NCBI GenBank assembly: GCA_964639265.1
Contig: CAZXCL010000003.1
Span: 733 to 64,732 of the forward strand
Reading direction: 5' to 3'
Length of the DNA: 64,000 bases
Source: an uncultured Gammaproteobacteria bacterium
GTDB taxonomy: Bacteria; Pseudomonadota; Gammaproteobacteria; Steroidobacterales; JBCCMA01
The notes beneath the pieces are model-generated. The model made no database searches, was not told where the DNA came from, and saw only the letters and a program-made list of their open reading frames with translations. Both the position numbers and the translations under genes were made by a program. Of this stretch, positions 12,759 through 38,927 are shown piece after piece (position 1 is the first letter of the stretch; every line of letters starts with the position of its first letter).

Positions 12759-12778
12759 GAAACAGTCAAGATTGTTTT
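12759..12778. promoter_or_regulatory. Palindromic operator candidate, site 1 of 3 (GAAACAGTCAAGATTGTTTT)
   Basis: 17 of 20 matches to the ideal palindrome AAAACAGTCATGACTGTTTT. It sits in the divergent gap between the SDR/Rieske operon (-) and the GST gene (+). Near-identical sites occur at 21336 and 38885. Confidence 0.55.
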
Positions 12779-12831
12779 TTTTAGTCACAAATGCGGTACA
12801 TTATGTTTGATTGCACTGACCAGGTAGAGAC

Positions 12832-13743
12832 ATGAAGTCATTGATTCTGCATCATTTTGATGCATCTCCGTTTGCCGAGAAGATACGGGTGGCGCTGGGC
12901 ATGAAGAACCTGCCGTGGCATTCCGTGCAGATTCCGATGGTGATGCCCAAGCCCGAGTTGATGCCGCTGACCGGTGGCTACCGAAAAACGCCTGTTCTGC
13001 AAATCGGGGCAGAGGTCTACTGTGATACGAGCCTGATTCTCGAGGAGCTCGAGGCCCGTTTTCCAACGCCACCACTCATCGACCAACACAACGTCGGCAC
13101 CGCCGCCGCTCTGGCCCGCTGGTCCGACACGAGTTTTTTTGAGCCCGGCGCGGGTCTGTCGATGGGCCTGAACCAGGGCTTGCCCGACGATATCCTCAGC
13201 GATCGCAAGGACTTCTTCAATTTCATGGATTTCGATCGTCTGAGCGATGATATCCCGCATCTCTACGACCAGTTTCTGGCGCAGGTTGCGCGGGTTGAGG
13301 ATCAATTGTCGGACGGTCGCCTGTTCTGGCGAGGTCTGGACCCGGCGGTTGAGGACATTCTCGCCTACTTCCCAATCTGGATGGCGCGTGCAAACGTACC
13401 GGGGATGGAAGAGCGTCTGGCATCGTTCGCCCGTGTCGGCGCCTGGTCACAGCGCATTGCTGATTTCGGGCATGGCACGCCCAATCCGCTGACGGCCGCG
13501 TCGGCACTAGCGCTGGCCCGAGACGAGGAACCTGAAGCAGGCCACGGAGTTACGGCCACCTGTTCCGAGCTGGCAATGGGCGATGCGGTGACGGTCACCC
13601 CCACCGACTACGGTGCGGTACCCGTGGCTGGCGAGCTTCTCACGCTCAATCACCGCCGTATCACGATTCGTCGTCACAGCGATGAAACTGGGGTACTTAA
13701 CACCCATTTCCCCCGGAGCGGCTATCGTGTCACCCAAAGATGA
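12832..13743 (+). CDS. Glutathione S-transferase-family protein with a C-terminal extension
   Basis: GST N-terminal thioredoxin-like region (HHFDASPFAEKIRVALGMKNLPW...TPVLQIG..YCDTSLILEELE). Confidence 0.7.
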   Translation: MKSLILHHFDASPFAEKIRVALGMKNLPWHSVQIPMVMPKPELMPLTGGYRKTPVLQIGAEVYCDTSLILEELEARFPTPPLIDQHNVGTAAALARWSDTSFFEPGAGLSMGLNQGLPDDILSDRKDFFNFMDFDRLSDDIPHLYDQFLAQVARVEDQLSDGRLFWRGLDPAVEDILAYFPIWMARANVPGMEERLASFARVGAWSQRIADFGHGTPNPLTAASALALARDEEPEAGHGVTATCSELAMGDAVTVTPTDYGAVPVAGELLTLNHRRITIRRHSDETGVLNTHFPRSGYRVTQR

Positions 13744-13766
13744 CACGCAATGTGTTCGTCTTCCCT

Positions 13767-13795
13767 TTATCGTTGGTCTACACTTTTCACATAAT
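13767..13795 (+). promoter_or_regulatory. Possible sigma70-type promoter of the CHAT/MBL/patatin operon
   Basis: TTATCG, 17 nt spacer, CATAAT, in the AT-richer gap upstream of 13867. The -35 is weak. This is pattern matching only. Confidence 0.2.
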
Positions 13796-13866
13796 TTGAC
13801 GATTGTGACAGCGCGCGCATCTTGCGTGAGCGCAGGTGGACAGACCAAACGATAATAAGGATCTGC

Positions 13867-16194
13867 GTGTCCAGAAGGATCAACAGCCGCGGTGCCCGGC
13901 CAAGCGTCGGCTGGCTCTGGCGAAACCTGTTCGGGTTGATCGTGCTGCTGCAGGTGGCTTGCTCATCCCTGAGCCCACCGGATATCCCGGTGCCGGTGCT
14001 GACTGGCACATCACAGCAAGCTGCGCAGGAGACGCTGGCGACGCTGGGCCTTTCCACGCAGATCCTGCCACTCGATGAGTTGGATTTGAAACAGCGGTTT
14101 GGGCCGAGCCGTAGCGCGTGGCCGCCGCCTGACACGGTCGTCACCCAGCAACCGGCCGACGGCAGTCTTGCCGCAGGCTCGGTCGTTGTCCTGCAGGTCG
14201 CACGCTACCGTCGCATTGAGCCGCCAATGATCGTCCCCGTAGTCATTCCCGAAGGAACGATACCCGACGTCAGGGCTCTACCGCTGGATGCTGCGCAGCG
14301 CGCACTGCAGCGGGCGGATTTCGGCGTTCGTCTTCTTTCGGTGGGGCCAGACCAGTTACGTGCGCGCTTTGGCGAACGGCCGGGGCGCTGGCCGGTGCCC
14401 AACTCGGTTGTCGGGCAACGTCCGGCCGGCGGGACGATCGAAGACCTGGGCGAAACCGTGGACATCGACGTTGCCCGCTGGTCGCCGATGGATCTTGCAA
14501 CCGGGGGTGTCGCCGGGAACACGCTGGCCCGGGCCCGCCGTCAGCTTGAGGCGGCGGGCTACAGGGTTGAGGTCATCGAGCGATCGCCCGTCAATGCGCC
14601 AAACGCCAGACACGGCGACGTGCTTGCAACGCAGCTGATTGGCCGCGACAACGGGCGCAATGTCATGCAACTGACCGTCGCCAATGCCAACGGACGCAAC
14701 GTGACGCCGCCCCCGCCGCCAGACACCGACAGCGATGGGGTCCCTGATCCTGATGATGCGTGTCCACAAACTCCGGCGAATACCACGGTCGACGGGCGCG
14801 GCTGTCAGCAGGTGACAACGCCGCTCGACAGCGACGGCGATGGCGTACCCGATGACAGGGATCTGTGTCCGGACTCGCCGCCCGGAAGCTTTGGCGCTCC
14901 ACAGGGCTGCACCTTGACGCAGCGCGTTAATCGTCTGCCGGACGGTCTTTACGCCTTTAATCGCCAGACGGTCATGCAGGTTGGCCGCCCTGAACCCTAT
15001 CGCATCGTGTTGGTGCTCGATCCGCGTGGATCGGCAACCCCCGGTGACATCGAGGCGCAGGTGTTGAGCCAGCTGCCAGATGGTGATCGCCCGCCGTCGC
15101 GCGAGGTGAACGCGTTGAGTGACGAGACGGACGACTGCACTGCGCCGGTGATCTGCTTTCGTGAAAAGTACTACGAGCGCATGCGTGTGGATTTGCGCGT
15201 TGATCAAAAAGGCTGGGAAATCCGGCCGGACAATCCGGTGGCGATACGCGGTGTGGTCAGTGATCAGGTGACGCGCTGGAGCTGGACGGTGGTCCCGGCG
15301 TGCGACGGCGGCGGACTGCTCAACGGCGAGTGTCGCCCGGCGGCTCTGACGCTGGATGCCTATGCCATGTTTGACGACACAAGCTACGGACCGATCATGG
15401 TGTTCAACGAGCAGATCACCGTAGAGGTGTCTGCGGACGAACGCGTGGCGTCATTTTTTGAGCGCAACCGCACGCTGATCTTCGGCACGATTATTTTTGC
15501 CGTGTTGCTGGCGCTGGCGACGTGGTGGCTGGCGCGGCGCCGGCACAACACAGCCCGGCCTTTGCCGGAGTTCGAGGCCGTCAGCGTGCTGTTTATCGGT
15601 GCCAATCCGCGCGGCACCAGCCGCATTCGCCTGGATGAGGAGGTGCGCGGCATTGATCAGTCGATTCGTCTTGGCGAGCGACGCGATGCGTTTACTCTGC
15701 ATCAGCACTGGGCAGCCCGCGTCAGCGATCTCGACGATGCGCTCATGCGCTTTAGACCCAATATCGTTCACATCAGTGCGCACGGCACAGACCGCGGTGA
15801 ACTACTTCTCGAGGGCGGAGAGGGCGACGATGGCAAGGTCAGCGCCGCGCAGCTTGAAAAACTCTTCGCTATTCTTAGTGATGACATTCGCCTCGTTGTG
15901 CTGAACGCGTGTTTCTCCGAAGAGCAGGCGCGCCTGATCGTCAATCACGTGGACTGCGTCGTGGGGATGTCGGATGCGGTCAACGATCAGGTGGCGCAGC
16001 GTTTTGCCGAATCGTTCTACCTCGCGCTGGCCAACGGGCGCAGCGTGCAGATAGCGTTTGAGCTTGCCAGTGCCGAGGTGCAGGGCAAGGGGCAGGACGC
16101 CGTGCCGCGTCTGCTGGCGCTGCGCAGTGATCCCAGGCGTGTGGAGTTTGCACGACGATCGCCGGCACGCCATATCGAAGGAGTGAATATCTGA
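13867..16194 (+). CDS. Transmembrane receptor-like protein: signal/anchor, 3 PASTA-like repeats, TSP3 repeats, a periplasmic domain, a TM helix and a cytoplasmic CHAT (caspase-like) module
   Basis: I prefer GTG 13867, 5 nt after AAGGA, over the track's TTG at 13822. The N-terminus is RNLFGLIVLLQVACSS. PASTA-like units end in TVVTQQPADGSLAAGSVVVLQVA, SVVGQRPAGGTIEDLGETVDIDVA and GDVLATQ..MQLTVA. TSP3 repeats are DTDSDGVPDPDDACP and DSDGDGVPDDRDLCP. The TM helix is LIFGTIIFAVLLALATWWLARRR (about 15474-15542). The CHAT dyad context is NIVHISAHG (His 15781-15783) and LVVLNACFS (Cys 15910-15912). Confidence 0.7.
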   Translation: MSRRINSRGARPSVGWLWRNLFGLIVLLQVACSSLSPPDIPVPVLTGTSQQAAQETLATLGLSTQILPLDELDLKQRFGPSRSAWPPPDTVVTQQPADGSLAAGSVVVLQVARYRRIEPPMIVPVVIPEGTIPDVRALPLDAAQRALQRADFGVRLLSVGPDQLRARFGERPGRWPVPNSVVGQRPAGGTIEDLGETVDIDVARWSPMDLATGGVAGNTLARARRQLEAAGYRVEVIERSPVNAPNARHGDVLATQLIGRDNGRNVMQLTVANANGRNVTPPPPPDTDSDGVPDPDDACPQTPANTTVDGRGCQQVTTPLDSDGDGVPDDRDLCPDSPPGSFGAPQGCTLTQRVNRLPDGLYAFNRQTVMQVGRPEPYRIVLVLDPRGSATPGDIEAQVLSQLPDGDRPPSREVNALSDETDDCTAPVICFREKYYERMRVDLRVDQKGWEIRPDNPVAIRGVVSDQVTRWSWTVVPACDGGGLLNGECRPAALTLDAYAMFDDTSYGPIMVFNEQITVEVSADERVASFFERNRTLIFGTIIFAVLLALATWWLARRRHNTARPLPEFEAVSVLFIGANPRGTSRIRLDEEVRGIDQSIRLGERRDAFTLHQHWAARVSDLDDALMRFRPNIVHISAHGTDRGELLLEGGEGDDGKVSAAQLEKLFAILSDDIRLVVLNACFSEEQARLIVNHVDCVVGMSDAVNDQVAQRFAESFYLALANGRSVQIAFELASAEVQGKGQDAVPRLLALRSDPRRVEFARRSPARHIEGVNI

Positions 16195-18875
16195 TGGATA
16201 CGACGGACGAGATGAGCGAGGGCGAACGCGTCGCGGCCTTCCTGATGGGCAGCGGACCACGCCATCGCAGCAGTGCCCCGGAGCCGGCGCTATTGCCGCA
16301 TCTGGCGGCCTACTTGTGTCACGACTTCAGTATCGAAAAAGTCTTGCAAACCGCGCGTGATCTGGGGCTTTACGGCGGCGCGCCGCCGCCCTGGCCGGCG
16401 TTGTTCTACAGCACGCTCACGGCCGCCTGCACACGACCCGAGCTGGTGGCGCATCTGCGAGAGTTTTCCGGCATCCCCGAGATGCTTCTGCGCGTCGGCA
16501 GTCTGCCGCAGTCCCCGGCACAGGCCGACACCGCGGCGTGGCTGGAGCAATGCTGGGATGAACCCGATGCGATGGGCAGTGATTTTCCATCTTATGCGGG
16601 CGCAGCTCAGGTGCTGTGCGCTCAGCCGTCCGACATGATTGCCACCACGCTTGACGACGCGCGACTCGACCCGGCGCAGCTCGATCCGGAGTCTGTGCGC
16701 TGCTTGCTGGTAGCGATGCGCCAGATTGGTCGGGCGCCGGAGAACAGCTGGATCCGGCGGGCGCTGGATTCAGGCGCTGGCCAGCATCAGCGCTGGACGC
16801 GTCTGGCCCACGTGTTGCCGGATCTGCCCGCCGCCGAGCGCGCGCGCTATGCCGATGAACTGGCCTCGGCTGAGCTCGACGACCGCTATCCGCCGGACTA
16901 CCGGGCCATGGTTGTGTCGCGTATTGCGCCGTTCGTTTCGTCGCGCCGAGCGTTTCATTATCGAGCGCTGACTGCTGAGATGGACCCGGTGTGGGTCGAG
17001 CAGATTGACGGGCTGCTCGGTGCCGGCTGGCCAGAGACGCTCTGGGCTGACGTCATGCGCGCCCATCCCGAACACGACATGTTTCGCAACGTCGTGCGTC
17101 CTCACGAAACCACCGAAATGGCGCCGTATGAGATCGAAAATCGCTACGGCGCGGCCCAGATGGCGATGAATCCCGGTGAGCCGGCCACGCGCGGCGGTGC
17201 AGGTGAGGAAACCAGCGCGCCGCCACCGCAGCCCGTACCCGTCGATCCTGCTGCGCCGGCCACGCCCCGCGCGCTGCAGGCCAACGTGATGCTGGATGAC
17301 GATATGCAGGAGGTCAGCGCGTTTGTTGCCAATGCCCCGCACGTGGTGGATGTGTCGATCGGGCGCGGCGCCAGCGTGGTGGCGGATGTGGCGTTTGATG
17401 AAACCGTGTTTGATGAGACCGATGCAAAGTGGCTCAAGCTGCCGGTCTGGCTGCACTACGATGGCCAGACGCAGAAAGACGTTTTGCGCGTGCCGCGCGA
17501 TGCCGCTCGCAATTCCAAAGAGGTCAGCTTCAACATCCGGGCGCCGGCGACGGGTCGGGTCAAGGCGCGGCTCTACGTGATGCGACCGGGCGGCGGCTTG
17601 CTGCTGCAGAGCGCCGTCTTGCTCGGTGACGTAGTGGCCGATGCGGCCACTGCCGTGGGTCATTCGCCAGGTCTCGAACTCAATGTGGACGTGCATGCGG
17701 GCGAACTGAACGATCCGCTGTCTTCGCCCACCGGAGGCGTGGTTGATGGCAGCGAGCGCGACGGTCAGGTCATCGGTGATGACGCGATGGTCGATCTGGA
17801 TGTCTCGAGCCTGCACGGTTATCTGTCGAAGCTGGTTGTGGAAATCGAAACGGCCGCCGACCGCCGCAAGTACGATGACAAGGCCATCGACGAGGCGCTG
17901 GCCTCGCTGGCGATCGCAGGACAAGCCCTTCGCGCACGCTTTGCCGGTGCGCTTGGTCCGCTCATGGATAAACCGGTGATTCAGGTGCTCTCGCCGCGCG
18001 CCGGCGATCTGCTGCCCCTTGAGCTGGTGTACGACGGCGATCCGCTGGCCTCGGATTCCACGGTCTGCCCAAACTGGCGTGAGGCTGTGCGTGCGAACGA
18101 CTGCAGCGGCTGCCCGGCGGCCGACGGCTCGCCGCACGTATGTCCGCGCCGTTTCTGGGGTGTGCAGAAAGTCATAGAGCGGCGCAGCGCCGGCGGCGGC
18201 CAGGGTTTTCAGGTGGGAGCGCATCCCACCAGCGGCCGACCTGCGTTGCGACCGATTGCCGGGGCTGCCGTGGGTGCGTCCGGGCGCGTGGAAGAACAGG
18301 ATGTTGCCAAAGTGCGCGACAAGGTTGCCAGCGCCTTTGGTGTCGATACCCAGCAGGCGGTCGACTGGGACAGCTGGCGCGTGCTTGTAAACGATCACAC
18401 GCCCGAACTTCTGGTTGCGATGCCCCACGATCACTACATCGCCAACGAGCTGAGCTCGGCACTGATGATGGGCGAACCCGAAGACGCCGATTTCGCGCCA
18501 CCGGCCACGGCGTTGGTCTCTGGCAGCGTCCGCAAGGACGTGGTGCACACCGAAAACGCGCTGCCCGGACCCATCGTATTTCTGCTTGGCTGCAACACCT
18601 TGTTCAAGGAAGGTCAGATCGTCAGTTTCGCCGATGAGTTTCGCGACAACGGTGCAGCGCTGACCATCGCCACGATGGGCAAGCTCGTGGTCGAGCAGGC
18701 GCCCGAGGCGGCCGATGTGTTGCTGGATGTGCTCGCGCAGCGACCCGACGGCATCGATACACTCGGCCAGGTGTTGCTCAAGGCGCGGCGCGAATTACTT
18801 GCCAACGGCATGATCATGGCGTTGTTGCTGGTCGCCAACGGCGATGCGAACTGGCAACTGCCAGCCCAGGAGTAA
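16194..18875 (+). CDS. Large cytoplasmic CHAT-domain protein with an unassigned about 560-aa N-terminal region
   Basis: Its ATG overlaps the upstream TGA (16192-16196). The C-terminal third reads like CHAT: VIQVLSPRAGDLLPLELVYDG, LLVAMPHDH (His 18426-18428 or 18432-18434) and IVFLLGCNT (Cys 18591-18593). A Cys cluster C-x11-C-x2-C-x9-C lies at 18066-18143. Confidence 0.6.
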   Translation: MDTTDEMSEGERVAAFLMGSGPRHRSSAPEPALLPHLAAYLCHDFSIEKVLQTARDLGLYGGAPPPWPALFYSTLTAACTRPELVAHLREFSGIPEMLLRVGSLPQSPAQADTAAWLEQCWDEPDAMGSDFPSYAGAAQVLCAQPSDMIATTLDDARLDPAQLDPESVRCLLVAMRQIGRAPENSWIRRALDSGAGQHQRWTRLAHVLPDLPAAERARYADELASAELDDRYPPDYRAMVVSRIAPFVSSRRAFHYRALTAEMDPVWVEQIDGLLGAGWPETLWADVMRAHPEHDMFRNVVRPHETTEMAPYEIENRYGAAQMAMNPGEPATRGGAGEETSAPPPQPVPVDPAAPATPRALQANVMLDDDMQEVSAFVANAPHVVDVSIGRGASVVADVAFDETVFDETDAKWLKLPVWLHYDGQTQKDVLRVPRDAARNSKEVSFNIRAPATGRVKARLYVMRPGGGLLLQSAVLLGDVVADAATAVGHSPGLELNVDVHAGELNDPLSSPTGGVVDGSERDGQVIGDDAMVDLDVSSLHGYLSKLVVEIETAADRRKYDDKAIDEALASLAIAGQALRARFAGALGPLMDKPVIQVLSPRAGDLLPLELVYDGDPLASDSTVCPNWREAVRANDCSGCPAADGSPHVCPRRFWGVQKVIERRSAGGGQGFQVGAHPTSGRPALRPIAGAAVGASGRVEEQDVAKVRDKVASAFGVDTQQAVDWDSWRVLVNDHTPELLVAMPHDHYIANELSSALMMGEPEDADFAPPATALVSGSVRKDVVHTENALPGPIVFLLGCNTLFKEGQIVSFADEFRDNGAALTIATMGKLVVEQAPEAADVLLDVLAQRPDGIDTLGQVLLKARRELLANGMIMALLLVANGDANWQLPAQE

Positions 18876-18880
18876 AACCA

Positions 18881-19972
18881 ATGAAGATCTACCAACTTGA
18901 AATGTTGCCCGCCGCGGAGGGCGACGCGCTGCTTCTGACCTACGGTGACAGCGAACACCCGCGACATGTGCTGATCGATGGCGGTCGGCGCTCCACCTAT
19001 CCGCTCTTGCGTGAGCGCATTCTGGAAATCCCGCTAAACGAAGACGGCAAGCGCTACTTCGAGCTTCTGATTGTTTCGCACATCGATGCTGACCACATTG
19101 AGGGCATCATCGGTTTGCTCCAGGACGACGAGCTTGAGTGCGAATTCGGCGATATCTGGTTCAACGACTTTCAGCATCTCGAGCCGCTGGTTGCCGGTGA
19201 AATGCCGACGCATCTGGGTGCCAAGCAGGGCGAGTTTCTGGGTGCCCTGCTGCATCATCTGGATTTGCCCTGGAACGAGCATTTCCAGGGCGGCGCTGTC
19301 GTCATGCCGCCCGAGCCGCACCCGCTGCCGCGTATTGAGCTTGCCGATGGACTCACCCTTACGCTGGTATCACCGAGCATCGAGTCGCTGATCAAGCTGC
19401 GCAAGAAATGGAACAAGGTCATCGAGGCGGCGGGGTTTGTGCCTGGCAACCGCGAGGCCGCGCTGACGCAGTTTGGCGACAAGGCCTGGACACGGTTGTT
19501 GACCCATCTTGGCACCGATCGCAAGCGGCCGACCAACGATCACAGTGAGGCCAACGGGTCGAGTATTGGGGTGGTTGCTGAGTACGAGGGACATCGACTG
19601 CTTTTGTCGGGTGATGCCTGGCACAAAGTCCTTCATCCAGCGCTCGTTCGCTGGCGCGATGAGCACGAGCCGGATGCCGAGCGAGTAAAACTCGATGCCT
19701 TCAAGCTGCCGCATCACGGCAGCAAGAACAACATCAACGACAAGCTGATGGCCGTTATCGACTGCCCGCGCTATCTGGTCTCCACCAGCGGATCGCGGTT
19801 TCGTCATCCCGATGTGCCGGCCATCGAGACGATCATGGACCACCATCACGGCGATGAAAAACCCGAGCTGTGGTTCAACTACACTTCTAAACACAACGAC
19901 TTCTGGGCCAACGAGGCTCGCGTGGTCACCCGCTACGGCGATGACGCCGTGTTCAGGCTAAACATCGACTAG
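18881..19972 (+). CDS. MBL-fold metallo-hydrolase (ComEC-C-terminal-like)
   Basis: AGGAG lies 10 nt upstream. Motifs are HxDxDH (SHIDADHIEG, 19079-19096), a later LLLSGDAW, KLPHHGSKNN and STSGSRFRHPD. Confidence 0.75.
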   Translation: MKIYQLEMLPAAEGDALLLTYGDSEHPRHVLIDGGRRSTYPLLRERILEIPLNEDGKRYFELLIVSHIDADHIEGIIGLLQDDELECEFGDIWFNDFQHLEPLVAGEMPTHLGAKQGEFLGALLHHLDLPWNEHFQGGAVVMPPEPHPLPRIELADGLTLTLVSPSIESLIKLRKKWNKVIEAAGFVPGNREAALTQFGDKAWTRLLTHLGTDRKRPTNDHSEANGSSIGVVAEYEGHRLLLSGDAWHKVLHPALVRWRDEHEPDAERVKLDAFKLPHHGSKNNINDKLMAVIDCPRYLVSTSGSRFRHPDVPAIETIMDHHHGDEKPELWFNYTSKHNDFWANEARVVTRYGDDAVFRLNID

Positions 19973-19985
19973 AGGATCAACGGAC

Positions 19986-20993
19986 ATGACGATCAAGGTA
20001 AACGGCGAAGACAAGCGGTTGGGACTGGCGCTTTCGGGCGGCGGATTTCGGGCGGCTGCATTTCATCTGGGCGTGTTTCGCAAGCTCGAAGCGCTGGGGC
20101 TTTTGTGGAAGGTGGATCTTCTGACCTGCGTGAGCGGCGGCAGTATTGCGGGTGGCTTTCTGGCGCTCAACTGGGGCAAGGACGATGCGCTTGATCGGCT
20201 CGAGGCCTATCTCAAGACCAAATCCATTGCCGTGTCGTCCGTGCTTGGCGGCATCTTCAACCCGTTTGAGACGCGGCTCGAAAGGCTGGCTGCCACGTAT
20301 GACAAGCATCTGTTCCATGACGCCAGGCTCGAGGATCTGAGCGGCGGGCCGCGGATTTATTTCAACGCGACCAACCTCGCCACGGGCAACATGTTTTTCT
20401 TTGTGGCCGGCGAGAACAAACCCACCGAGCTGGGCGAATGGCAGCTTGGCCAGAACGCAGGCGGCACCTTCCCGCTGAGTCATGCCGTAGCAGCCTCATC
20501 AGCGTTCCCGCCGGTGTTTCCACCGTTGCGCATCGATCAGGATCAGTTTGATGGGGACGTGGACTTCGTCACGCTGACTGACGGCGGTGTGTACGACAAC
20601 CTCGGCGTTAATCCGGTGTTTCGAAAACGCAACGCGCTGGATTTTGTGATCGTCAGCGATGCGGGCAAGCCGTTTGCCATTGATGAGACGCCGACGGAAA
20701 AAGGCGCCATCGTGCTCAAGGAGGCGCTCGGTATCCTCATGGAGCAGGTGCGCGGGCTGCAGTTTCAGCGACTGGCGCTGTCGCATGAGGCGGGCCACGG
20801 TCCCAAGCCTTTGTGGTTTTCAATCAACAGCGTCGAGGGCGAGCAGCAGCCGGGTGATGCCACCTTTGCCTCCAGCGTCGGCACAAATCTCAAAAAGCTC
20901 AATGACGCGGAGATGGAGGTGCTGGGCCGCCACGGCGGTGCCCTGCTTGAGCATCGCATGCGCGAATATGCGCCGGAGATGCTTGGCGGCTGA
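19986..20993 (+). CDS. Patatin-like phospholipase
   Basis: GAGGA RBS. Oxyanion motif LSGGGFRAAAF (20037-20051), nucleophile elbow CVSGGS (Ser 20133-20135) and catalytic Asp motif LTDGGVYDNLG (Asp 20580-20582). Confidence 0.85.
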   Translation: MTIKVNGEDKRLGLALSGGGFRAAAFHLGVFRKLEALGLLWKVDLLTCVSGGSIAGGFLALNWGKDDALDRLEAYLKTKSIAVSSVLGGIFNPFETRLERLAATYDKHLFHDARLEDLSGGPRIYFNATNLATGNMFFFVAGENKPTELGEWQLGQNAGGTFPLSHAVAASSAFPPVFPPLRIDQDQFDGDVDFVTLTDGGVYDNLGVNPVFRKRNALDFVIVSDAGKPFAIDETPTEKGAIVLKEALGILMEQVRGLQFQRLALSHEAGHGPKPLWFSINSVEGEQQPGDATFASSVGTNLKKLNDAEMEVLGRHGGALLEHRMREYAPEMLGG

Positions 20994-21320
20994 TCAGCCT
21001 GATGATTCGACGCTTACTTCGACAACGCCCTCGTCGCTGACCCGGGTCGGATAGACCGACAGATCGCCGCGCGCGAGCTGGCCGTTGGGCTTGCCCGTGC
21101 GCACGTCAAACATGGCGCCGTGCAGCGGACAGATCAGTCGAAAACGCCGCAGGCGCGCACCTTCGAACGTGGCTTTGGCGTGCGTGCACTCATTGGAGAC
21201 GGCGTGAAATTCCTCGCCGATCCTGCACAGTACAATCGGGGTGCCCGCCGCTGTGGTGCACAAAACACCGGACTCGGGCATTTCGTTGGCGGGAATAACA
21301 GGCTCAAAAGTGGCGCTCAC
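20994..21320 (-). CDS. Rieske [2Fe-2S] ferredoxin component of an oxygenase system
   Basis: 108 aa with CTHAKATF...CPLHGAMFD. GTG start behind AAGGA. Its stop abuts the patatin gene stop with zero intergenic bases. Confidence 0.85.
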   Translation of the reverse strand: MSATFEPVIPANEMPESGVLCTTAAGTPIVLCRIGEEFHAVSNECTHAKATFEGARLRRFRLICPLHGAMFDVRTGKPNGQLARGDLSVYPTRVSDEGVVEVSVESSG

Positions 21321-21335: not shown

Positions 21336-21355
21336 AAAACAGTCATGATTGTTTT
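21336..21355. promoter_or_regulatory. Palindromic operator candidate, site 2 of 3 (AAAACAGTCATGATTGTTTT)
   Basis: 19 of 20 matches to the ideal palindrome. It lies 16 nt upstream of the ferredoxin start (-) and 57 nt upstream of the ABM start (+). Confidence 0.6.
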
Positions 21356-21371: not shown

Positions 21372-21380
21372 TGCTACCAT
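21372..21380 (+). promoter_or_regulatory. Extended -10-like element TGCTACCAT
   Basis: It lies 16 nt downstream of operator site 2 and 32 nt upstream of GTG 21412. An identical 9-mer sits in the same relative position at 38919-38927. Confidence 0.4.
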
Positions 21381-21411: not shown

Positions 21412-21705
21412 GTGCTGACGTTTCTTTCAAGAATGACCGTCAAGGCGGAAAAAGAAGCCGAATATCTGGATCTGGTGGCCAAGCTAACCGAAGCGGTGCG
21501 CGCCAACGAACCCGATACGCTGCAATATCAGTTTTATAAGCTGCGCGATCAGCCGCTGGGCTACGCTGTCTTTGAGTCGTTTACCAGCGAAGAGGCGGAA
21601 AAAGCGCATCTGGATACGCCGCATTTTCATAAATACGCGCCGCCGATGATCGAGTGTCTCGATGGCGAGTACGTACGCGAATATCTCGACGATCTGCCCG
21701 GCTGA
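21412..21705 (+). CDS. ABM-domain (antibiotic-biosynthesis-monooxygenase-like) protein
   Basis: 97 aa with GAGGAG RBS and GTG start. The sequence YQFYKLRDQPLGYAVFESFTSEEAEKAHLDTPHF is a typical ABM/YgiN-like pattern. Confidence 0.7.
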   Translation: MLTFLSRMTVKAEKEAEYLDLVAKLTEAVRANEPDTLQYQFYKLRDQPLGYAVFESFTSEEAEKAHLDTPHFHKYAPPMIECLDGEYVREYLDDLPG

Positions 21706-21711
21706 CTGGTC

Positions 21712-23379
21712 GTGCATTCTCCGGGCGACGATTTAAGAACCAGCCGCATTCGCGCTACCACTCTGGGCGACTTGTTGTTGACGGCGGCCGACTCGGTGCC
21801 CGAACACACGGCGGTCGTGTTTCCCGAGCAGCGTCTGACCTATGCGCAGCTCACCGAGGCATCGCTCAAGGTCGCACGCAGCCTGCATGCGCTGGGCGTG
21901 GGGCGTGGTGATCACGTTGGCCTGCTGCTGCCGACCTGCGCGGAGTTTCTGGAAGCCATGTTTGGCGCGAGCCTGCTTGGCGCCGTGGTGGTGCCGATCA
22001 ATGCGCGCTTTCGTCCAATGGAAATTGCCTACGTAACCGGCAACGCTGATCTCAAGGCCATCGTCACAACCAACAAGTTTGTGGACGTGGTCGACTTTTG
22101 CGGTCGGCTGCACGAAGCGCTGCCGGGCTTGAAAGAAGCACGCGATGCAACCTCGCTGTCGCTGCCCGATTTTCCGCAGCTCAACGCGGTTGTGTCGCTG
22201 TCCGGCGACGCAGTGGCCGGCCTCGTGGATCGCCCTGCGTTTGATGCGCTGGCCGCGAGCATCGATGAAGACGAGGTGCATCTGCGGCGACTGCAAACCC
22301 GTCTGGGATCCACTGCCCTGATTCTTTATACCTCGGGCACCACCTCGAACCCCAAGGGCTGCATGATCAGTCACGAGTCGATGGTGCGCAGTTCCATCGC
22401 GCTCGGTCGTCGGTACGAAGTGGGACCCAAAGACAGCTTCTGGTCGCCACTGCCGCTGTTTCACATCGCGGCGATTCTGCCACTGGTGTCTATTTTTGAT
22501 CAGGGCGGCACGTATATTACGGCCGAACATTTCAACGCCGGCGAGGCGCTGAAGATGCTCGAGCAGGAGAAGGCCACGCTGACGTATCCGTGCTTCTGGA
22601 CGATCATGGGCGATCTGGTGCAACACCCGGATTTTGCCAGCACGGACCTGAGCAATATCCGTCTGATGAACGCCAACTTTGCGGTTCAGCCGGCCGCGGT
22701 GGGCGAGACAATGGAGTCAACGCTGCCCGACATTTGCTATGTCGGCACCTTTGGTATGACGGAGACCGCCGGCACCGTGACAACCGGGCGCATAGGCGAT
22801 AGCAAAACCCATCGCTATACGCGCCTGGGTACGCCCTTGCCGGGTCTTGAGGTCCGCATTCTCAATCCCGAAACCGGCGAGGAAGCGGCGACCGGCGAGA
22901 AGGGTGAATGTCTGATTCGCGGTTACAGCACGTTCGATCGCTACTACAAAGCGCCGGAGAAAACCGCCGAAGCCCTGGACGACGAGGGCTGGTTCCACTC
23001 AGGCGACATCTGCTCGATCGATGACGACGGTCAGCTTATGTTCCACGGCCGACTGAAAGACATGCTGAAAGTTGGCGGCGAAAACGTGGCCGCGGCGGAA
23101 ATTGAATCGTGTCTGCAGCAGCACGAGGCCGTGACACTGGCGCAGGTGGTCGGTGTGCCCGATCCGCGCTACCAGGAGGTTGCCGCGGCGTTTATCCAGT
23201 TCAAGGAAGGCATGAGCGCCGATGAGCAAGCCCTCATCGCCCACTGCAAGGAGCGCATGGCCAGCTTCAAAGTGCCGCGCTATGTGCGCACGGTCACTGA
23301 ATGGCCCATGTCGTCCACCAAGATTCAGAAATTCCGTCTTGCCGACCAGCTCATCGAAGAGCTGGGTCTTGGTGAGTGA
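21712..23379 (+). CDS. AMP-dependent acyl-CoA synthetase/ligase
   Basis: AMP-binding signature LYTSGTTSNPKGCMISH, then GMTET, GWFHSGD and LKDMLKVGGENV. Confidence 0.9.
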   Translation: MHSPGDDLRTSRIRATTLGDLLLTAADSVPEHTAVVFPEQRLTYAQLTEASLKVARSLHALGVGRGDHVGLLLPTCAEFLEAMFGASLLGAVVVPINARFRPMEIAYVTGNADLKAIVTTNKFVDVVDFCGRLHEALPGLKEARDATSLSLPDFPQLNAVVSLSGDAVAGLVDRPAFDALAASIDEDEVHLRRLQTRLGSTALILYTSGTTSNPKGCMISHESMVRSSIALGRRYEVGPKDSFWSPLPLFHIAAILPLVSIFDQGGTYITAEHFNAGEALKMLEQEKATLTYPCFWTIMGDLVQHPDFASTDLSNIRLMNANFAVQPAAVGETMESTLPDICYVGTFGMTETAGTVTTGRIGDSKTHRYTRLGTPLPGLEVRILNPETGEEAATGEKGECLIRGYSTFDRYYKAPEKTAEALDDEGWFHSGDICSIDDDGQLMFHGRLKDMLKVGGENVAAAEIESCLQQHEAVTLAQVVGVPDPRYQEVAAAFIQFKEGMSADEQALIAHCKERMASFKVPRYVRTVTEWPMSSTKIQKFRLADQLIEELGLGE

Positions 23380-23418
23380 CGGCGTCGAATAGTCAAGCGC
23401 AACCGGAGGAGACCGAGC

Positions 23419-23706
23419 ATGGTGTTTATCGCACTTCTCAAAGTAAAAAAAGACAAAGTAGAGCAGTTTGAGGCTGCGCAGAAAGAGCTGTCCGAACTCA
23501 CGCACAAGCACGAGCCGGATACCTACGTCTACGATCTGATCAAGCAGAAAGACGATCCACTGACCTACATCTGCTACGCCCGCTTCAAGGACCAGGCCGC
23601 ATTTGATCATCACATGCAGACCGAGTTTCACGATCGTCTGGTGCCGCCCATCCTCGACAGTCTTGCCGAAGAAATGGAGCTGACGTTCTACGAGCACGTC
23701 GCCTGA
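23419..23706 (+). CDS. ABM-domain protein, paralog of 21412..21705
   Basis: 95 aa with GGAGGAG RBS. Contains YDLIKQKDDPLTYICYARFKDQAAFDHHMQTEF. Confidence 0.7.
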   Translation: MVFIALLKVKKDKVEQFEAAQKELSELTHKHEPDTYVYDLIKQKDDPLTYICYARFKDQAAFDHHMQTEFHDRLVPPILDSLAEEMELTFYEHVA

Positions 23707-23716
23707 CATCTGCCTA

Positions 23717-24919: not shown

Positions 24920-24946
24920 GGCGCCTGGCCCCGTTACACTGCGTTC

Positions 24947-32303: not shown

Positions 32304-32321
32304 GTCTCAGGTCAGACGCAG

Positions 32322-32361: not shown

Positions 32362-32387
32362 CAAACGATGCCCCCAGGCGTCGCGCG

Positions 32388-33305: not shown

Positions 33306-33694
33306 TGCAACGATGCCTTTGTAATTGACGGTTCTTGTTTGGCGCTTTTGGCGTTGAGCGCCGTAACGCTACCTTGGACAATCACCTATTGCCAAACAAC
33401 CGAAAATTGCTCCCCGCGCGTTATCTTGACGTTATTTCTGCCGACGTGGCTCAAAAACGGCGCAGATTCGGCGAATATCGGCGGGAGTGCCGTCAAAGCC
33501 GCCGCTGTGGTTATACATAATGCAGCCTGATCAACGCGAGAATGTCGTGGAAATCTGTCCGCCTCAAGCCTTACACTTGCGAGCATCGGCAGGGGAAGCC
33601 TGTAAAAAGGGTCAGGCGCACGCGCACCTGAGCGGGGTCGGTGTGGCCAGTGATTAAACCGAGTCCAGAAAGATGAGCCTCTCCACGAAATCGT

Positions 33695-36600
33695 ATGTCG
33701 ACTAATCCTATCCTTGCTGCTCCCTTTGAACTGGCCGGTTTTGTTGTCGATCCGGCGACCGGCACGTTGACCCGTGACCGTGAGCAGAAGCAACTGCAGC
33801 CCAAGGTCATGCAGTTGCTGGTGTGCCTGGCGGAGCATCACGGGCAGATTGTCAGCAAGGAATTTTTGCTCGAGAACGTTTGGCGCGGCACCTTTGTCGT
33901 CGACGGTGCGTTGCGCCGCTGCGTGTTTCTGCTGCGCAAGGCGCTGAGCGATCCGGCGCGAGACGAATCGGTGCTGGAGACGCTCCCACGGCGTGGCTAT
34001 CGACTGACCGTCGCCCCGGCGCCGATCGACGCGAATGCGCAGACAGAGCCGGCCGCATCGCAGTCGGAAGAGACGCCGTTTGAGGGCGAGGCCTATCGAG
34101 GTCTGCAGGTTTTCGAGTCCAGCCACGCCGATCGGTTCTTTGGACGCGAGGCAGCCGTTGAGAGAGTGGTCAATGCGCTCGATGCGCAGGCCGCAAGCGG
34201 ACACGGCTTTTGCCTGATTTTGGGACCAAGCGGTAGCGGTAAGTCTTCGCTTGCCATGGCCGGCGTGCTGCCGGCGCTGATGACGCGCGATGCAGAGCAG
34301 CGCCTTGTGTGCGCCACGTTCAAACTCAGCGACAGCCCGGCCGATCCGATGATGCGCTTCGCGACCTGTCTGGCTGAGGCCGCCGACGATCATAATGCCA
34401 GCGAAGAAAGTGCAGCGGTGCTGGCGCGTCTGCTCAAAGATGACGATGAGGACGCAGCCGTTTCGGCAATCGTGGAGTTGTTTGCGACTCAGGATGACAA
34501 AGCCGGCAAACGCCTGCTGCTGGTGTTCGATCAGTTCGAGGAGCTGCTTTCCGACGATACCGACGTCGCGCTTAGAGAGCGTTTTTTGCGCGTGCTGTAT
34601 CCGCTGGTGCGCAGCGGCAATGTGTGGCTCCTTGCAACCATGCGCAGCGAGTTTTATCCGCAATTTGTAGCGCTTGAAACGCTGCGCTTTATGCGTGGCG
34701 ACCACGGTCAGGTGGATCTGAACTTTCCGGGTGCGGCAGAAATCACAGACATCGTACGCAAGCCCGCGAAGCTCGCGGGGCTGACGTTTGACACAGATGA
34801 TCAAAGCCGGCGCCTCGATCAGATCATTATTGATGATGCGACGGCGCAGGCCAACAGTCTGCCTCTGCTGCAGTTTGTGCTGCGCGAGCTGGAGCTCAAG
34901 AGTACGGATCGCGTTTTGCGTACAGCAGACTACGAGGCTCTGGGCAGCATGGCGGGCTGTCTGTCGGAGCACGCCGATCGCGTCTTCGATGGCCTTTCCG
35001 ACGAAGCGCAGGGCGCTCTGCCCGAGGTGCTCGAGCGTATGGTCAGTGCTGATCCGCGCAACGCCGGCCGCGTGCTGAAGCGTACGGTGGCGCTCAGCGA
35101 GTTTGATAGTAACGCTGGCGCGCGCGAATTGATCGATGCGTTCATCGACGCCAGGCTCATTACGACGTTTATCGACAAGGTCGCCAGCGAGCCCGCGGCG
35201 CAGTTTGCCCACGAGGCGGTGCTCGCGAACTGGGAGACCGGACGTGACTGGGTGCAGGCTAACTATGCCGAGATCCGGTTTCGTACCTGGATTAATGATC
35301 TCGCAACCCGCTGGCATGACGATGATCGTGCGAAGCACTATCTTCTGAATGACGGCAAATCTCTGGTCGAAGCACGCCGACTGGTTGACGCGCACGTGGG
35401 GCTCGCACCAGCGACGCCAGATTTCGTGGCTGCCTCGCATCTTCGTGCCTCCATCCGCGATGTCATCCGCGGCGCGGTTACTCTTTCGCTTGCAGCGCTT
35501 ACGGTGCTGGCTCTGTTTATGTGGCGCAGCGCCGAGAACAGCCGCGAGGTCGCCGAGGCCTCGACGCGACGGGCCGAGGCGACCAGTGATCTGGTGCTCT
35601 CAGTATTCGATGAAGCCGACCCGGGTATCTCGAAGGATCGACAGCTCTCAGCACTCGGTGTACTCGACCGCGCGCGCGAACGCATGGGCGATCAGTTGAG
35701 CACGGCGGAGCCCGTCGATCAGGTGTCGATGCTCAGCAAACTCGGTCAGACCTACCATCTGATGGGCCAGACAGACGTGGCCAGTGAGCTGCTCGGCAAT
35801 GCCGAGACCTTGCTGCCTTCCATCGAACAACGCTATCCCGCAGTGGCGGCCGAACTGCTGATCGAGCTGGCCAGTCTGCGCAAAAAACAGCAGGCGCTTG
35901 CCGACAGCGATGCGTATATCGAGCGCGCCTTGTCGCTTGCGCGGCGCGCTGACGCCCCGTTGCTGATTGCCCATGCCTTGAATCAGCAGGGCTTGCTCGC
36001 GCAGACGCGCGGTGATCACAACGAAGCGATCGCGCTGTTTGCGCAGGCCAATGATGTTCTCGACACGGCACCGTCGACACCCGCCGTTATCCGGCTGGCG
36101 CCAAGCATTGTGGCCAACCTGGGTAGCTCGCGGATGAGCCTCGGTGATTATCCGGCCGCCGATGACGCGTTCCGTCTGGCGATTGACCTGCGCCGGGAAC
36201 ACGGTCTCGATGACACCGCCTACCAGTCCGATTTGCTTTCGAATCGTGGCACGCTGGCGCATTTTCAAAAGCAGTATGCGCGGGCCGTCGACTTTTTCTC
36301 CCAGGCCATCGAGCTGCGCTCGCGCCTGCACGGGCCGGAGCATCCGCGCAATGCAACCTATTTTGTCAATCTGGCGTCGGCGCAGATGAAGCTCGAGCAG
36401 TTTGTGCAAGCGCGAGAGAGTGCACGCGCCGGCCTAGAGATTGCCGCCGCCGGTGGTCATCTCGGTGACGATGTGCCGGCGCTATTGCATGCCAACTTTG
36501 TCATGGCCAGCTGGCTTTCTGATCAGGACGTGGACGCGCAGCAGAGGCGTGCCGCGGACGCGCAAATCGGCGTGCTGGCGCGACTCTACGGTGAGGATGC

Positions 36601-36817
36601 GAGCATCACCCATGCGGTATCCGTCGCGCTGCTGGGTCTGCGTCTGCATCAACGGCTGGAGGCGGGGGGATCGGAGACCGCATCGCTCTGTGAGCAGTTC
36701 GTTTTGGCGGCCGCCAAGTTGCCGCAAAAAGAAGGCCCGGAGTCACCATTGCAGGCAAAAGCCGCGTCGCAGCTCGACCGCTGCGACGCGCTGGGAAAAA
36801 CACCCTCGTTGCAATGA
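33695..36817 (+). CDS. Membrane-tethered regulator: OmpR/CadC-type winged-helix domain, STAND-like P-loop NTPase, TM helix and TPR region
   Basis: The wHTH reads LQPKVMQLLVCLAEHHGQIVSKEFLLENVW...LETLPRRGYRL. Walker A is LILGPSGSGKSSLAMAG and Walker B is RLLLVFDQFEEL. The TM helix is AVTLSLAALTVLALFMW. The C-terminal 400 aa has TPR-like periodicity (YHLMGQTDVASELL, QQGLLAQTRGDHNEAIALF, RGTLAHFQKQYARAVDFF). Confidence 0.75.
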   Translation: MSTNPILAAPFELAGFVVDPATGTLTRDREQKQLQPKVMQLLVCLAEHHGQIVSKEFLLENVWRGTFVVDGALRRCVFLLRKALSDPARDESVLETLPRRGYRLTVAPAPIDANAQTEPAASQSEETPFEGEAYRGLQVFESSHADRFFGREAAVERVVNALDAQAASGHGFCLILGPSGSGKSSLAMAGVLPALMTRDAEQRLVCATFKLSDSPADPMMRFATCLAEAADDHNASEESAAVLARLLKDDDEDAAVSAIVELFATQDDKAGKRLLLVFDQFEELLSDDTDVALRERFLRVLYPLVRSGNVWLLATMRSEFYPQFVALETLRFMRGDHGQVDLNFPGAAEITDIVRKPAKLAGLTFDTDDQSRRLDQIIIDDATAQANSLPLLQFVLRELELKSTDRVLRTADYEALGSMAGCLSEHADRVFDGLSDEAQGALPEVLERMVSADPRNAGRVLKRTVALSEFDSNAGARELIDAFIDARLITTFIDKVASEPAAQFAHEAVLANWETGRDWVQANYAEIRFRTWINDLATRWHDDDRAKHYLLNDGKSLVEARRLVDAHVGLAPATPDFVAASHLRASIRDVIRGAVTLSLAALTVLALFMWRSAENSREVAEASTRRAEATSDLVLSVFDEADPGISKDRQLSALGVLDRARERMGDQLSTAEPVDQVSMLSKLGQTYHLMGQTDVASELLGNAETLLPSIEQRYPAVAAELLIELASLRKKQQALADSDAYIERALSLARRADAPLLIAHALNQQGLLAQTRGDHNEAIALFAQANDVLDTAPSTPAVIRLAPSIVANLGSSRMSLGDYPAADDAFRLAIDLRREHGLDDTAYQSDLLSNRGTLAHFQKQYARAVDFFSQAIELRSRLHGPEHPRNATYFVNLASAQMKLEQFVQARESARAGLEIAAAGGHLGDDVPALLHANFVMASWLSDQDVDAQQRRAADAQIGVLARLYGEDASITHAVSVALLGLRLHQRLEAGGSETASLCEQFVLAAAKLPQKEGPESPLQAKAASQLDRCDALGKTPSLQ

Positions 36818-37576: not shown

Positions 37577-37655
37577 GTGCCTCCCTTGCCGGCGTCCTCG
37601 CCGCATAGCCTGTGATCCACAGGCAGTATAGCGGTGTGGCGCCGCGGCCGCAGGC

Positions 37656-38819
37656 TCAGGTGGCGCGTTGGTTGAAGCGTCTTCCCACAAGGGCTGAAGC
37701 GATATTGGTTTTTTGCACGTCAATAGTGCCGCCGGCCAGGCCCCAGCCAAAGCTGTCGCGTACGCGCTGTTCCATACCGTATTCGCTTGCGTAGCCATAG
37801 CCACCCATGACCTGCATGGCGTTAACGCACACCGTGCGAACAATTTCATTGGCAAAACACTTGGCCGTGCTGCTTTCCAAAATTGAGGGCATACCGATGG
37901 AGGCGTTGTGAACGGCCCGGTAAATAAGAAGACGCGCGGCTTCGACCTGCATGGTCATCTCTGCCAGGCGCAGCTGAATGGCCTGAAAATCCACAATGGG
38001 TTTGCCAAACTGCTTGCGTTCCTGCACGTAGGCCGTGGCCTGTTCCAGCGCACCGGCGGCAAGACCCAGAGACATGGTCGCGTTACCGCAGCGCTCAAGA
38101 TCGAACGCCTCCATAAGCTTCTTGAAGCCACCGGCGGCCACGATCTGGTGGCCCGTCGGCAGGCGTACGTTGTCAAAGTAAACATCGCAGTGCCCCACGC
38201 CGCGCCAGCCCATGAGCCCCTCATGTTTACCGAACGAAACGCCCGGTGTGTCGCGTGGCACATAGACCGCACCGATGCCTTTGGCGCCGGGCTCTTCGGC
38301 CATGCGGCAATAGACCACGAACCCATCGGCATGCGCACCGCCACTGGTCCAGCGTTTTTGCCCGTTAAGCACCAATTCGTCACCGTCCGCCTCGGCTTTT
38401 GTGGTCAGATCGGTGAGCGCCGTCCCGGCGTTGGGTTCGGACATGCAAACCGCTACTTGAACGTCGCCTGTGCACACCGACGGCAGGACCCGCTGGCGCA
38501 GATCTTCCGGGGCAAAATGCTCGATGGCCTTGATCGGGCCGACGCAGGCCTCGAAGACTGGAAATGCCGCAGCCGTTGAGATGCGTGCGAACTGCTCCAG
38601 CACAATGATGGCATCGAGGTTGGACAGGCCAAGTCCGCCGTATTGTTCAGCGACGTTAATGCCAAGGAAGCCCTGCTCGGCAAGCTCATGCCGGATGGCC
38701 TGCGACGGCGGCTCGTTGGTGCGCTCGCAGGCCTCGGCAACGGCGGCCATGCGTTCGTCGGCAAAGCGGCGTGCGGCGTCGCGCAGCTGTTGCTGCTGAT
38801 CGGTAAGCTGGAAATCCAT
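37656..38819 (-). CDS. Acyl-CoA dehydrogenase
   Basis: MDFQLTDQQQQLRDAARRFA, CMSEPNAGT, QKRWTSGG and C-terminal MGGYGYASEYGMEQRVRDS. An alternative start lies at 38849. Confidence 0.9.
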   Translation of the reverse strand: MDFQLTDQQQQLRDAARRFADERMAAVAEACERTNEPPSQAIRHELAEQGFLGINVAEQYGGLGLSNLDAIIVLEQFARISTAAAFPVFEACVGPIKAIEHFAPEDLRQRVLPSVCTGDVQVAVCMSEPNAGTALTDLTTKAEADGDELVLNGQKRWTSGGAHADGFVVYCRMAEEPGAKGIGAVYVPRDTPGVSFGKHEGLMGWRGVGHCDVYFDNVRLPTGHQIVAAGGFKKLMEAFDLERCGNATMSLGLAAGALEQATAYVQERKQFGKPIVDFQAIQLRLAEMTMQVEAARLLIYRAVHNASIGMPSILESSTAKCFANEIVRTVCVNAMQVMGGYGYASEYGMEQRVRDSFGWGLAGGTIDVQKTNIASALVGRRFNQRAT

Positions 38820-38884
38820 GAACGTCCTCGGCGTTGGTGCAGGTTGCAAGCCGCATTATCGCTCGCTTTTCGCGATTAGAAAAG

Positions 38885-38904
38885 AAAACAAGCATGACTG
38901 TTTT
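38885..38904. promoter_or_regulatory. Palindromic operator candidate, site 3 of 3 (AAAACAAGCATGACTGTTTT)
   Basis: 18 of 20 matches to the ideal palindrome. It sits in the divergent gap between the acyl-CoA dehydrogenase (-) and the SDR/Rieske/E1-E2 operon (+). Confidence 0.55.
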
Positions 38905-38918
38905 TTTTCTTGAGCCAA

Positions 38919-38927
38919 TGCTACCAT
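38919..38927 (+). promoter_or_regulatory. Extended -10-like element TGCTACCAT
   Basis: Identical to 21372-21380. It lies 14 nt downstream of operator site 3 and 46 nt upstream of the start at 38973. Confidence 0.4.

Follow-up and report, generated by a model that had tools for sequence, protein, structure and literature searches.

A conserved 20-bp palindrome as the probable operator of a CymR-related TetR-family repressor at three catabolic gene blocks of an uncultured gammaproteobacterium

A stretch of 64,000 nucleotides from an uncultured gammaproteobacterium (Steroidobacterales, JBCCMA01; GenBank assembly GCA_964639265.1, contig CAZXCL010000003.1, positions 733 to 64,732 of the forward strand), referred to below as the window, carries the same 20-bp palindrome in front of three separate blocks of genes for Rieske oxygenases and enzymes of acyl-CoA metabolism. 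The three copies are most probably operators of one homodimeric TetR-family repressor, which belongs to an uncharacterised subfamily distantly related to CymR, is encoded outside the window and co-regulates the three blocks. The evidence comes from the distribution of the palindrome in the window and in other genomes, from the regulator genes found beside it and from its position relative to predicted promoters.

Results

The three copies are GAAACAGTCAAGATTGTTTT (operator 1, positions 12759 to 12778), AAAACAGTCATGATTGTTTT (operator 2, 21336 to 21355) and AAAACAAGCATGACTGTTTT (operator 3, 38885 to 38904), with no strand assigned; operator 1 has an A-tract at its left border and a T-tract at its right. 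An initial annotation of the window had given exactly these coordinates, had placed each copy in a divergent intergenic region and had found no further copy by eye. All three sites do lie between divergently oriented gene pairs, namely the genes for a short-chain dehydrogenase/reductase (SDR1, minus strand) and a GST-like protein (plus strand) at site 1, a Rieske ferredoxin (minus) and an ABM protein (plus) at site 2, and an acyl-CoA dehydrogenase (ACAD, minus) and an SDR (plus) at site 3. The sites are non-random. When both strands of the 64-kb window were searched with the consensus AAAACAGTCATGACTGTTTT at up to three mismatches, exactly three matches were obtained, with 0.00 expected from 100 dinucleotide-preserving shuffles. 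Scored with a symmetrised matrix, the three sites reached 32–37 bits and the runner-up position in the 64 kb remained below 10 bits, so that a fourth copy in the window was excluded. With a length of 20 bp, or about 26 bp when the A/T tracts are counted, the palindrome fits the size of TetR operators (about 15–30 bp). Its hexamers, AAACAG and CTGTTT on either side of TCATGA, are 6 nt apart and centred 12 bp apart, a spacing that would be compatible with one TetR dimer touching two successive major grooves.

Reference genomes, one per species, were scanned with AAACARKCAWGAYTGTTT, a pattern fitting all three sites, which yielded at least 119 loci. For each locus, 8 kb of sequence was examined for neighbouring genes; counts given here and below refer to the matches listed. 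These comprised 72 loci with a GC content of at least 0.5 and 47 with a lower one. The GC-rich loci came mostly from Proteobacteria (Steroidobacteraceae, Lysobacterales/Xanthomonadales, unclassified marine Gammaproteobacteria, Halioglobus, Sphingomonas, Sphingobium, Erythrobacter, Parvularculaceae, Tistlia and Bosea) and additionally from Myxococcales. The GC-poor loci, from Firmicutes, archaea, Bacteroidota and others, had no neighbouring genes in common save for three weak matches and look like chance matches. Viral contigs contained 46 matches to the same pattern, which serves as a rough indication of background only. Homologues of the window blocks were present at 45 of 72 GC-rich compared to 2 of 47 GC-poor loci, and members of one TetR subfamily were encoded in the 8 kb examined at 29 of 72 compared to 1 of 47.

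Open reading frames starting no more than 400 bp from a site were clustered by family, and part of the clusters were annotated. The largest clusters comprised SDRs (27 loci, with the window and both its site-adjacent SDRs counted), Rieske oxygenase alpha subunits (10), TetR proteins (10) and 2Fe-2S ferredoxins (9), followed by the set of ABM protein, CoA ligase and Rieske ferredoxin (7–8), TonB-dependent receptors (6), GST-like proteins (4), ACADs (4) and pyrroloquinoline quinone (PQQ) dehydrogenases (3). The intergenic motif thus adjoins, in other genomes, homologues of the genes that it adjoins in the window: SDR, ThuA, Rieske oxygenase and E1/E2 genes on the one hand, and ABM, CoA ligase, Rieske and thiolase genes on the other. 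Orthologues of each of the three blocks are preceded by the conserved palindrome, which supports the co-regulation originally proposed for the blocks. Comparison of related genomes by footprinting, as had been suggested, showed that orthologous spacers keep the palindrome while their flanks diverge. For site 1, orthologous sites were found at L053:81, L082:6753 and L129:7815 (locus and position); site 2 is kept in 7 orthologous spacers with diverging flanks, and site 3 has an orthologous site at L105:1172. In the metagenome-assembled genome SKYU01, one contig (L067) carries a TetR gene, the site and SDR/Rieske genes, and a separate contig (L071) carries an operon of the block 2 type headed by the site, an arrangement that matches the dispersed layout of the window.

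Among the site-adjacent clusters that were annotated, TetR was the only DNA-binding family that recurred. The site-linked TetR proteins are diverse (24–58% identity between lineages) and share the helix-turn-helix TTT..(I/V)A..AG(V/L)SRGA(M/Q)LHHF, in which SRGA(M/Q)LHHF forms the recognition helix. In 27 of 30 loci their genes are transcribed away from the site, and in 12 the gene start is within 60 bp of it. Secondary sites with 1–3 deviations were seen upstream of the TetR genes in L093 and L150. A variant of the palindrome, CAAACAGTCAAGACTGTTTG, stands directly upstream of CymR-like TetR genes in Tistlia, Bosea, Myxococcales and a deltaproteobacterial metagenome-assembled genome; the sites with this sequence are L094:2149, L113:5122, L098:438, L060:216, L163:5845, L065:2451 and L084:5. 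In Actinosynnema, CAAACAGTCAAGACTGTTTG lies at the very end of a contig and no TetR gene was seen there. In the Tistlia, Bosea, Myxococcales and related loci, no homologues of the window blocks were detected, and TetR is their sole recurrent site-adjacent family. Because a TetR gene adjoins CAAACAGTCAAGACTGTTTG even where no such homologues were detected, the motif is tied to the TetR protein and not to a particular enzyme.

For a test in the reverse direction, four 20-kb loci on long contigs were chosen via TetR homology and not via the motif. Each of the four contained exactly one strong site, which was located in the gap between SDR and ferredoxin genes, 1.3–1.8 kb from the TetR gene. All four shared the order Rieske-SDR, site, 2Fe-2S ferredoxin, SDR (minus strand), TetR and enoyl-CoA hydratase. 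ThuA and E1/E2 genes, as part of an SDR-ThuA-Rieske-E1a-E1b-E2 unit, were present in three of the loci, and the fourth (L171) had only SDR and Rieske. With the TetR protein of L067 as query, at least 1,468 cluster representatives (E≤1e-10) were retrieved from public metagenomes, all of them generically named.

The initial suggestion of a dimeric regulator from the TetR, GntR or IclR families can thus be narrowed to one TetR subfamily that is linked to the motif in other genomes. Several named TetR families, i.e. BetI, KstR, PsrA, FadR, AcuR, CurR, RutR and AcrR, were considered and rejected, as the site-linked proteins fell far below the respective NCBIfam cut-offs. Comparison with solved structures revealed similarity at the level of the helix-turn-helix only, with TtgR (1e-10) and SmeT (4e-7) as the best matches, and no curated family model or solved structure corresponds to the site-linked TetR. 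Full-text literature searches for the motif strings and the gene combination returned nothing relevant, and none of the papers searched describes the regulator.

The closest characterised system is CymR, whose operator CuO consists of ACAAACAGAC-N6-GTCTGTTTGT with the half-sites AAACAG and CTGTTT (PMC5224996). The CymR query sequence was confirmed to be identical to the database entry of that name. The site-linked TetR proteins showed 23–37% identity to it, with E-values of 3e-25 to 7e-8, and the CymR helix AGVSRGAQSHHF is nearly identical to AG(V/L)SRGA(M/Q)LHHF of the site-linked proteins. The half-site AAACAG is common to CuO and the window operators, whereas the gap between the hexamers is 10 nt in CuO and 6 nt in the window operators, i.e. 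4 bp narrower. Since identity is only 23–37%, the site-linked TetR proteins are, as judged from their sequences, relatives rather than orthologues of CymR. A tblastn search of plasmids with CymR gave only matches of less than 60% identity.

The sites hold a fixed geometry to a conserved -10 element. For the operon led by SDR1, with Rieske and SNF genes downstream, the predicted -10 element TATACT (12734 to 12739, minus strand) lies 19 nt from the end of operator 1, the same distance as in L053, L082 and L129. On the plus strand, a predicted extended -10 element, TGCTACCAT, is located at 21372 to 21380 (hexamer TACCAT, 21375 to 21380), 16 nt after site 2, and again at 38919 to 38927 (hexamer TACCAT, 38922 to 38927), 14 nt after site 3, where it is identical at the same offset in L105. 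Both had been pointed out in the initial annotation at exactly these positions, and they are conserved at the same place in orthologues: in block 2 orthologues, TG-n-TA(c/a)(c/a)AT is found 14–16 nt past the palindrome (L053, L071, L082, L122, L129, L140 and L158). A related element that had also been noted after site 1, ATGCGGTACATT, is indeed present at 12791 to 12802. The plus-strand TACATT inside it (12797 to 12802, 18 nt from the end of operator 1), a weak -10-like sequence for the GST-like gene, corresponds only to a weakly conserved TAnnnT at offset 17–18 in L053, L082 and L129 and is weak evidence for a promoter; the best-conserved -10 element at this site is the minus-strand TATACT.

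In SDR-led operons of other genomes, TATAAT or TATACT begins 17–20 nt past the 20-mer. Across the GC-rich loci, near-consensus -10 hexamers occurred at offsets of 16–20 nt in 29 of 41 cases, with a mode of 19–20; across the GC-poor loci, their offsets were evenly spread. The promoter-proximal end of the window operators lies 17–19 nt upstream of the conserved -10 element. As the conserved -10 element begins 16–20 nt past the operator end, the operator is predicted to span about -52 to -30 and to cover the -35 region. In L122 and L158, a TATACT firing toward the site precedes it by about 20 nt, a placement that is compatible only with repression.

Several points weigh against repression by a TetR protein of this subfamily. 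The pattern AAACARKCAWGAYTGTTT was built from the three sites of the window itself, which biases the motif statistics at the fixed positions. The promoter positions are predictions made without mapped transcription starts. A consensus promoter scan found no two-hexamer promoter in the three spacers, and none of the three promoters has a canonical -35 element; for this reason, promoters were called from the conservation of the -10 element across genomes. The start codon of the Rieske ferredoxin gene is only 15 nt from operator 2, so that its promoter geometry is ambiguous. A homologue of the site-linked TetR is absent from the window (tblastn, 1e-5), and the cognate regulator of the source organism is thus unproven. 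The gammaproteobacterial TetR loci have no strong site immediately upstream of the TetR gene, so that self-regulation is not universal. Finally, the operator centre falls near -41.5 at sites 1 and 2 and near -39.5 at site 3, given the conserved -10 positions, which also fits class II activation.

Activation in the class II style, with a dimeric factor (the same TetR or another protein) bound near -41.5 and recruiting RNA polymerase, is nevertheless considered improbable. It would account for the missing -35 elements, for the position of the operator centre and for the strikingly constant distance between operator and -10 element across genomes. However, with their near-consensus or extended sequences (TATAAT, TGnTAccAT), the -10 elements can work without a -35 element, and the spacing varies by 2–4 bp (offsets 16–20), which is loose for class II activation. 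In L122 and L158, moreover, the -10 element precedes the operator, and an activator could not act from such a position. Characterised members of the TetR family are overwhelmingly repressors. Among them is CymR, the nearest characterised relative (PMC5224996).

It is very unlikely that the sites are bound by a member of another family, such as GntR/FadR, IclR, LacI or CRP/FNR, and that the TetR genes are found beside them by coincidental co-location in a catabolic cluster. The core GTC-AT-GAC loosely resembles GntR/FadR-type operators, the window contains a LacI gene, and one LacI-like gene lies near the match in the Firmicute locus L052. Yet no DNA-binding family other than TetR recurs beside the sites among the annotated clusters, neither the LacI nor the STAND regulator of the window recurs there, TetR directly adjoins the site even where the remaining genes are unrelated to the window, and its recognition helix corresponds to the one in CymR, a protein with the same half-site in its operator. 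The CRP and FNR motifs TGTGA-N6-TCACA and TTGAT-N4-ATCAA do not match the palindrome.

A non-regulatory nature of the palindromes, as structural or mobile repeats, i.e. bidirectional intrinsic terminators or elements resembling repetitive extragenic palindromes (REP) or miniature inverted-repeat transposable elements (MITE), is barely credible and was rejected: each site is a hairpin-capable inverted repeat between an A-tract and a T-tract, and the RNA of site 1 folds at -11 kcal/mol (z=-3.6), but the sites have the 5' end of a gene on either side, so that no transcript needs terminating there, a terminator scan of the three spacers was empty, the hairpins are weak and AU-rich, with sites 2 and 3 folding at only -4.1 and -7.6 kcal/mol (z about -1.4), the window has no Rfam match, and only three copies exist in it, all promoter-proximal. 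Variation at position 7 is independent of that at position 14 (odds ratio 1.19, p=0.79), and 16 of 68 cases are A-C mismatches; the arms show no compensatory variation, which would be expected of a protein site and not of a hairpin.

The genes of the window were annotated with Pfam and NCBIfam, and none of the block enzymes attains an NCBIfam equivalog cut-off. Putative operon 1 (8824 to 12671, minus strand; Pfam, NCBIfam) consists of SDR1 (11775 to 12671), a Rieske oxygenase alpha subunit (10375 to 11736) and an SNF-family Na+ symporter (8824 to 10335), all on the minus strand and separated by gaps of 38–39 nt. Divergent from it is the GST-like gene (12832 to 13743, plus strand; Pfam GST_N_3), whose orthologues adjoin the site in L053, L082, L129 and L150. 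At site 2, the Rieske-type [2Fe-2S] ferredoxin gene (20994 to 21320, minus strand; Pfam Rieske and NCBIfam ferredoxin-subunit models), with orthologues adjoining the site in 6 loci, faces putative operon 2 (21412 to 27570, plus strand; Pfam, NCBIfam). The latter encodes an ABM protein, an acyl-CoA ligase, a second ABM protein, a Rieske oxygenase alpha subunit, a protein with HMG-CoA-synthase-like (HMGCS-like) and DUF35 (zf-ChsH2) domains and an SCP-x-type thiolase, and its gene order downstream of the site is preserved in L053, L082, L129 and L122. At site 3, the ACAD gene (37656 to 38819, minus strand; Pfam), orthologues of which adjoin sites in L056, L105, L116, L158 and L122, is divergent from putative operon 3 (38973 to 46558, plus strand; Pfam), which comprises genes for two SDRs, a Rieske oxygenase alpha subunit, E1 alpha, E1 beta, an E2 acyltransferase, a ThuA-like protein and a VOC/glyoxalase protein. 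Among the matches listed, more than 20 loci have the SDR-ThuA-Rieske-E1a-E1b-E2 unit immediately after the site. The three Rieske oxygenases are paralogous, consist of alpha subunits only and are distantly GbcA-like (NCBIfam). In an exact-protein look-up, an identical copy of a window Rieske oxygenase was found only on metagenome contigs of 1.7–3.5 kb.

The GST-like and Rieske ferredoxin genes have four further genes between their 3' ends (13822 to 20993), which encode a CHAT-domain protein, a protein of 893 aa without a Pfam match, an MBL-fold protein with a match to the PADLOC LmuA/Avs1a-MBL models (210 bits) and a patatin-like phospholipase. In the relatives L082, L129 and L053, sites 1 and 2 are just 1.4–2.4 kb apart. 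The region has the look of a defence-island-like insertion, about 7 kb in size, by which one ancestral cluster was split. Compact superclusters were observed in L122, with three sites (2388, 3638 and 5740), and in L158, with two (5419 and 7584), lying within 2–3.5 kb; they contain genes for Rieske, ACAD, CoA-transferase-like, VOC, Rieske ferredoxin, ABM and CoA ligase proteins. The three dispersed blocks of the window look like a scattered version of the single locus seen in L122 and L158.

The initial annotation had stated that the window contains no regulator gene. This holds for the three blocks, and no TetR, GntR or IclR gene was found anywhere in the window (Pfam TetR_N gave no match), but two regulator genes unrelated to the palindrome are present. 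One encodes a LacI-family regulator (54855 to 55919) beside a GH13/GH97/MFS cluster, the other a 1040-aa wHTH-STAND-TPR protein (33695 to 36817) that combines an OmpR-type winged helix, an nSTAND1 NTPase and TPR repeats and is encoded between blocks 2 and 3. Neither is located inside the three blocks, and both were rejected as the cognate factor, as neither recurs beside the motif elsewhere. The further claim that the regulator is encoded elsewhere is supported by the empty tblastn search of the window, and the TetR gene would accordingly be expected in another part of this genome. A 684-aa open reading frame (33386 to 35440), on the strand opposite to the wHTH-STAND-TPR gene and overlapping it, is probably spurious. 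The LacI gene ends a maltodextrin-type cluster 3' of block 3 (46564 to 55919), which includes genes for a ThuA-like protein with a TSP_3 repeat, a GH13 alpha-amylase, a GH97 protein, an MFS transporter and a second GH13 protein and appears unrelated to the palindrome regulon.

Further downstream (56034 to 58493), a BCCT-type betaine/carnitine/choline transporter gene is followed by a gene for a 309-aa protein with a flavin-reductase domain. Because the Rieske oxygenases of the regulon are GbcA-like, this protein could be their missing electron donor. Upstream of the two genes there is no copy of the motif, with a top matrix score of less than 10 bits at 56832. At the opposite end of the window (regions 1 to 2475 and 5246 to 7165), two adjacent paralogues of the tryptophan halogenase family are encoded. 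Thrombospondin type 3 (TSP_3) repeats occur in several window proteins (5246 to 7165, 13822 to 16194 and 46564 to 47652).

Discussion

The regulatory principle proposed here is a textbook one, namely a TetR repressor and a palindromic operator overlapping divergent promoters. A TetR homodimer would bind each operator between two divergent transcription units and cover the -35 region, most likely blocking RNA polymerase. All three blocks would be switched on together once the repressor is released by an inducer, which is probably either the substrate of the pathway or an intermediate in the form of a CoA thioester. The products placed under joint control would be the three alpha-only Rieske oxygenases, their ferredoxin, the SDRs, the CoA ligase, the thiolase/DUF35 pair, the ACAD, the acetoin-dehydrogenase-like E1/E2 proteins and the transporter.

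This scheme has its closest parallel in CymR of Pseudomonas putida F1 and Burkholderia xenovorans LB400, where one regulator controls several catabolic operons, including one for a Rieske oxygenase, with an acid substrate as the inducer. The targets in the window differ from the cym and cmt genes in that they encode alpha-only, GbcA-like Rieske enzymes together with CoA-dependent enzymes and an E1/E2 complex. A partial likeness also exists to SmeT, whose operator GTTTACAAACAAACAAGCATGTATGTATAT includes AAACAAGCATG and overlaps divergent promoters, both of which are repressed (PMC3128119). The left half of window site 3 has exactly the sequence of this AAACAAGCATG portion. However, SmeT binds a 28-bp pseudopalindrome and the window element is a cleaner 20-bp palindrome, the targets of SmeT-type regulators are RND pumps and not catabolic operons, and the resemblance of TtgR, SmeT and AcrR-type proteins to the site-linked TetR proteins is limited to the N-terminal helix-turn-helix domain.

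In Actinobacteria, KstR and KstR2 each exemplify one TetR repressor that governs dispersed catabolic operons (with Rieske, ACAD, CoA ligase, thiolase and DUF35 genes) through a common palindrome in divergent promoters. The regulon of the window resembles this logic of one TetR protein over dispersed catabolic operons, by analogy only. A KstR-type protein was rejected, as the site-linked TetR proteins score 19–31 bits against NCBIfam NF033703, whose cut-off is 280. The KstR motifs TnnAACnnGTTnnA and AnCAAGnnCTTGnT do not match the window palindrome, and no canonical genes for steroid-ring degradation are present in the window.

With its CoA ligase, Rieske oxygenase, SCP-x-type thiolase and DUF35-type protein, block 2 is similar to the ipfABDEF type of CoA-dependent aromatic acid catabolism in Sphingomonas sp. 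Ibu-2, although the analogy extends to gene content only. The ipf logic consists of CoA ligation, dioxygenation of the CoA thioester and cleavage by the thiolase/DUF35 pair (PMC10004696). Unlike in ipf, the oxygenase of block 2 has no beta subunit, and DUF35 is fused to an HMG-CoA-synthase-like domain.

The palindrome unites three separate blocks of uncharacterised function and links them to a conserved cluster that occurs in many soil, sediment and marine Proteobacteria. A broader proposal is offered tentatively: the motif and the TetR protein may define a widespread and so far undescribed regulon of environmental Proteobacteria, marking a new catabolic pathway in which an abundant substrate would be cleaved via alpha-only Rieske monooxygenases, SDR, ThuA-like and acetoin-dehydrogenase-like E1/E2 proteins, fed by the CoA-ligase/Rieske/thiolase-DUF35 module. 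If true, the operator would offer a direct handle on the pathway substrate, through regulon mapping combined with a TetR-based biosensor. CymR relatives with a different operator spacing could, in addition, supply orthogonal inducible switches. For an uncharacterised Rieske-oxygenase/acyl-CoA pathway, the definition of its regulon has now become testable, and the ligand of the candidate regulator would reveal the substrate.

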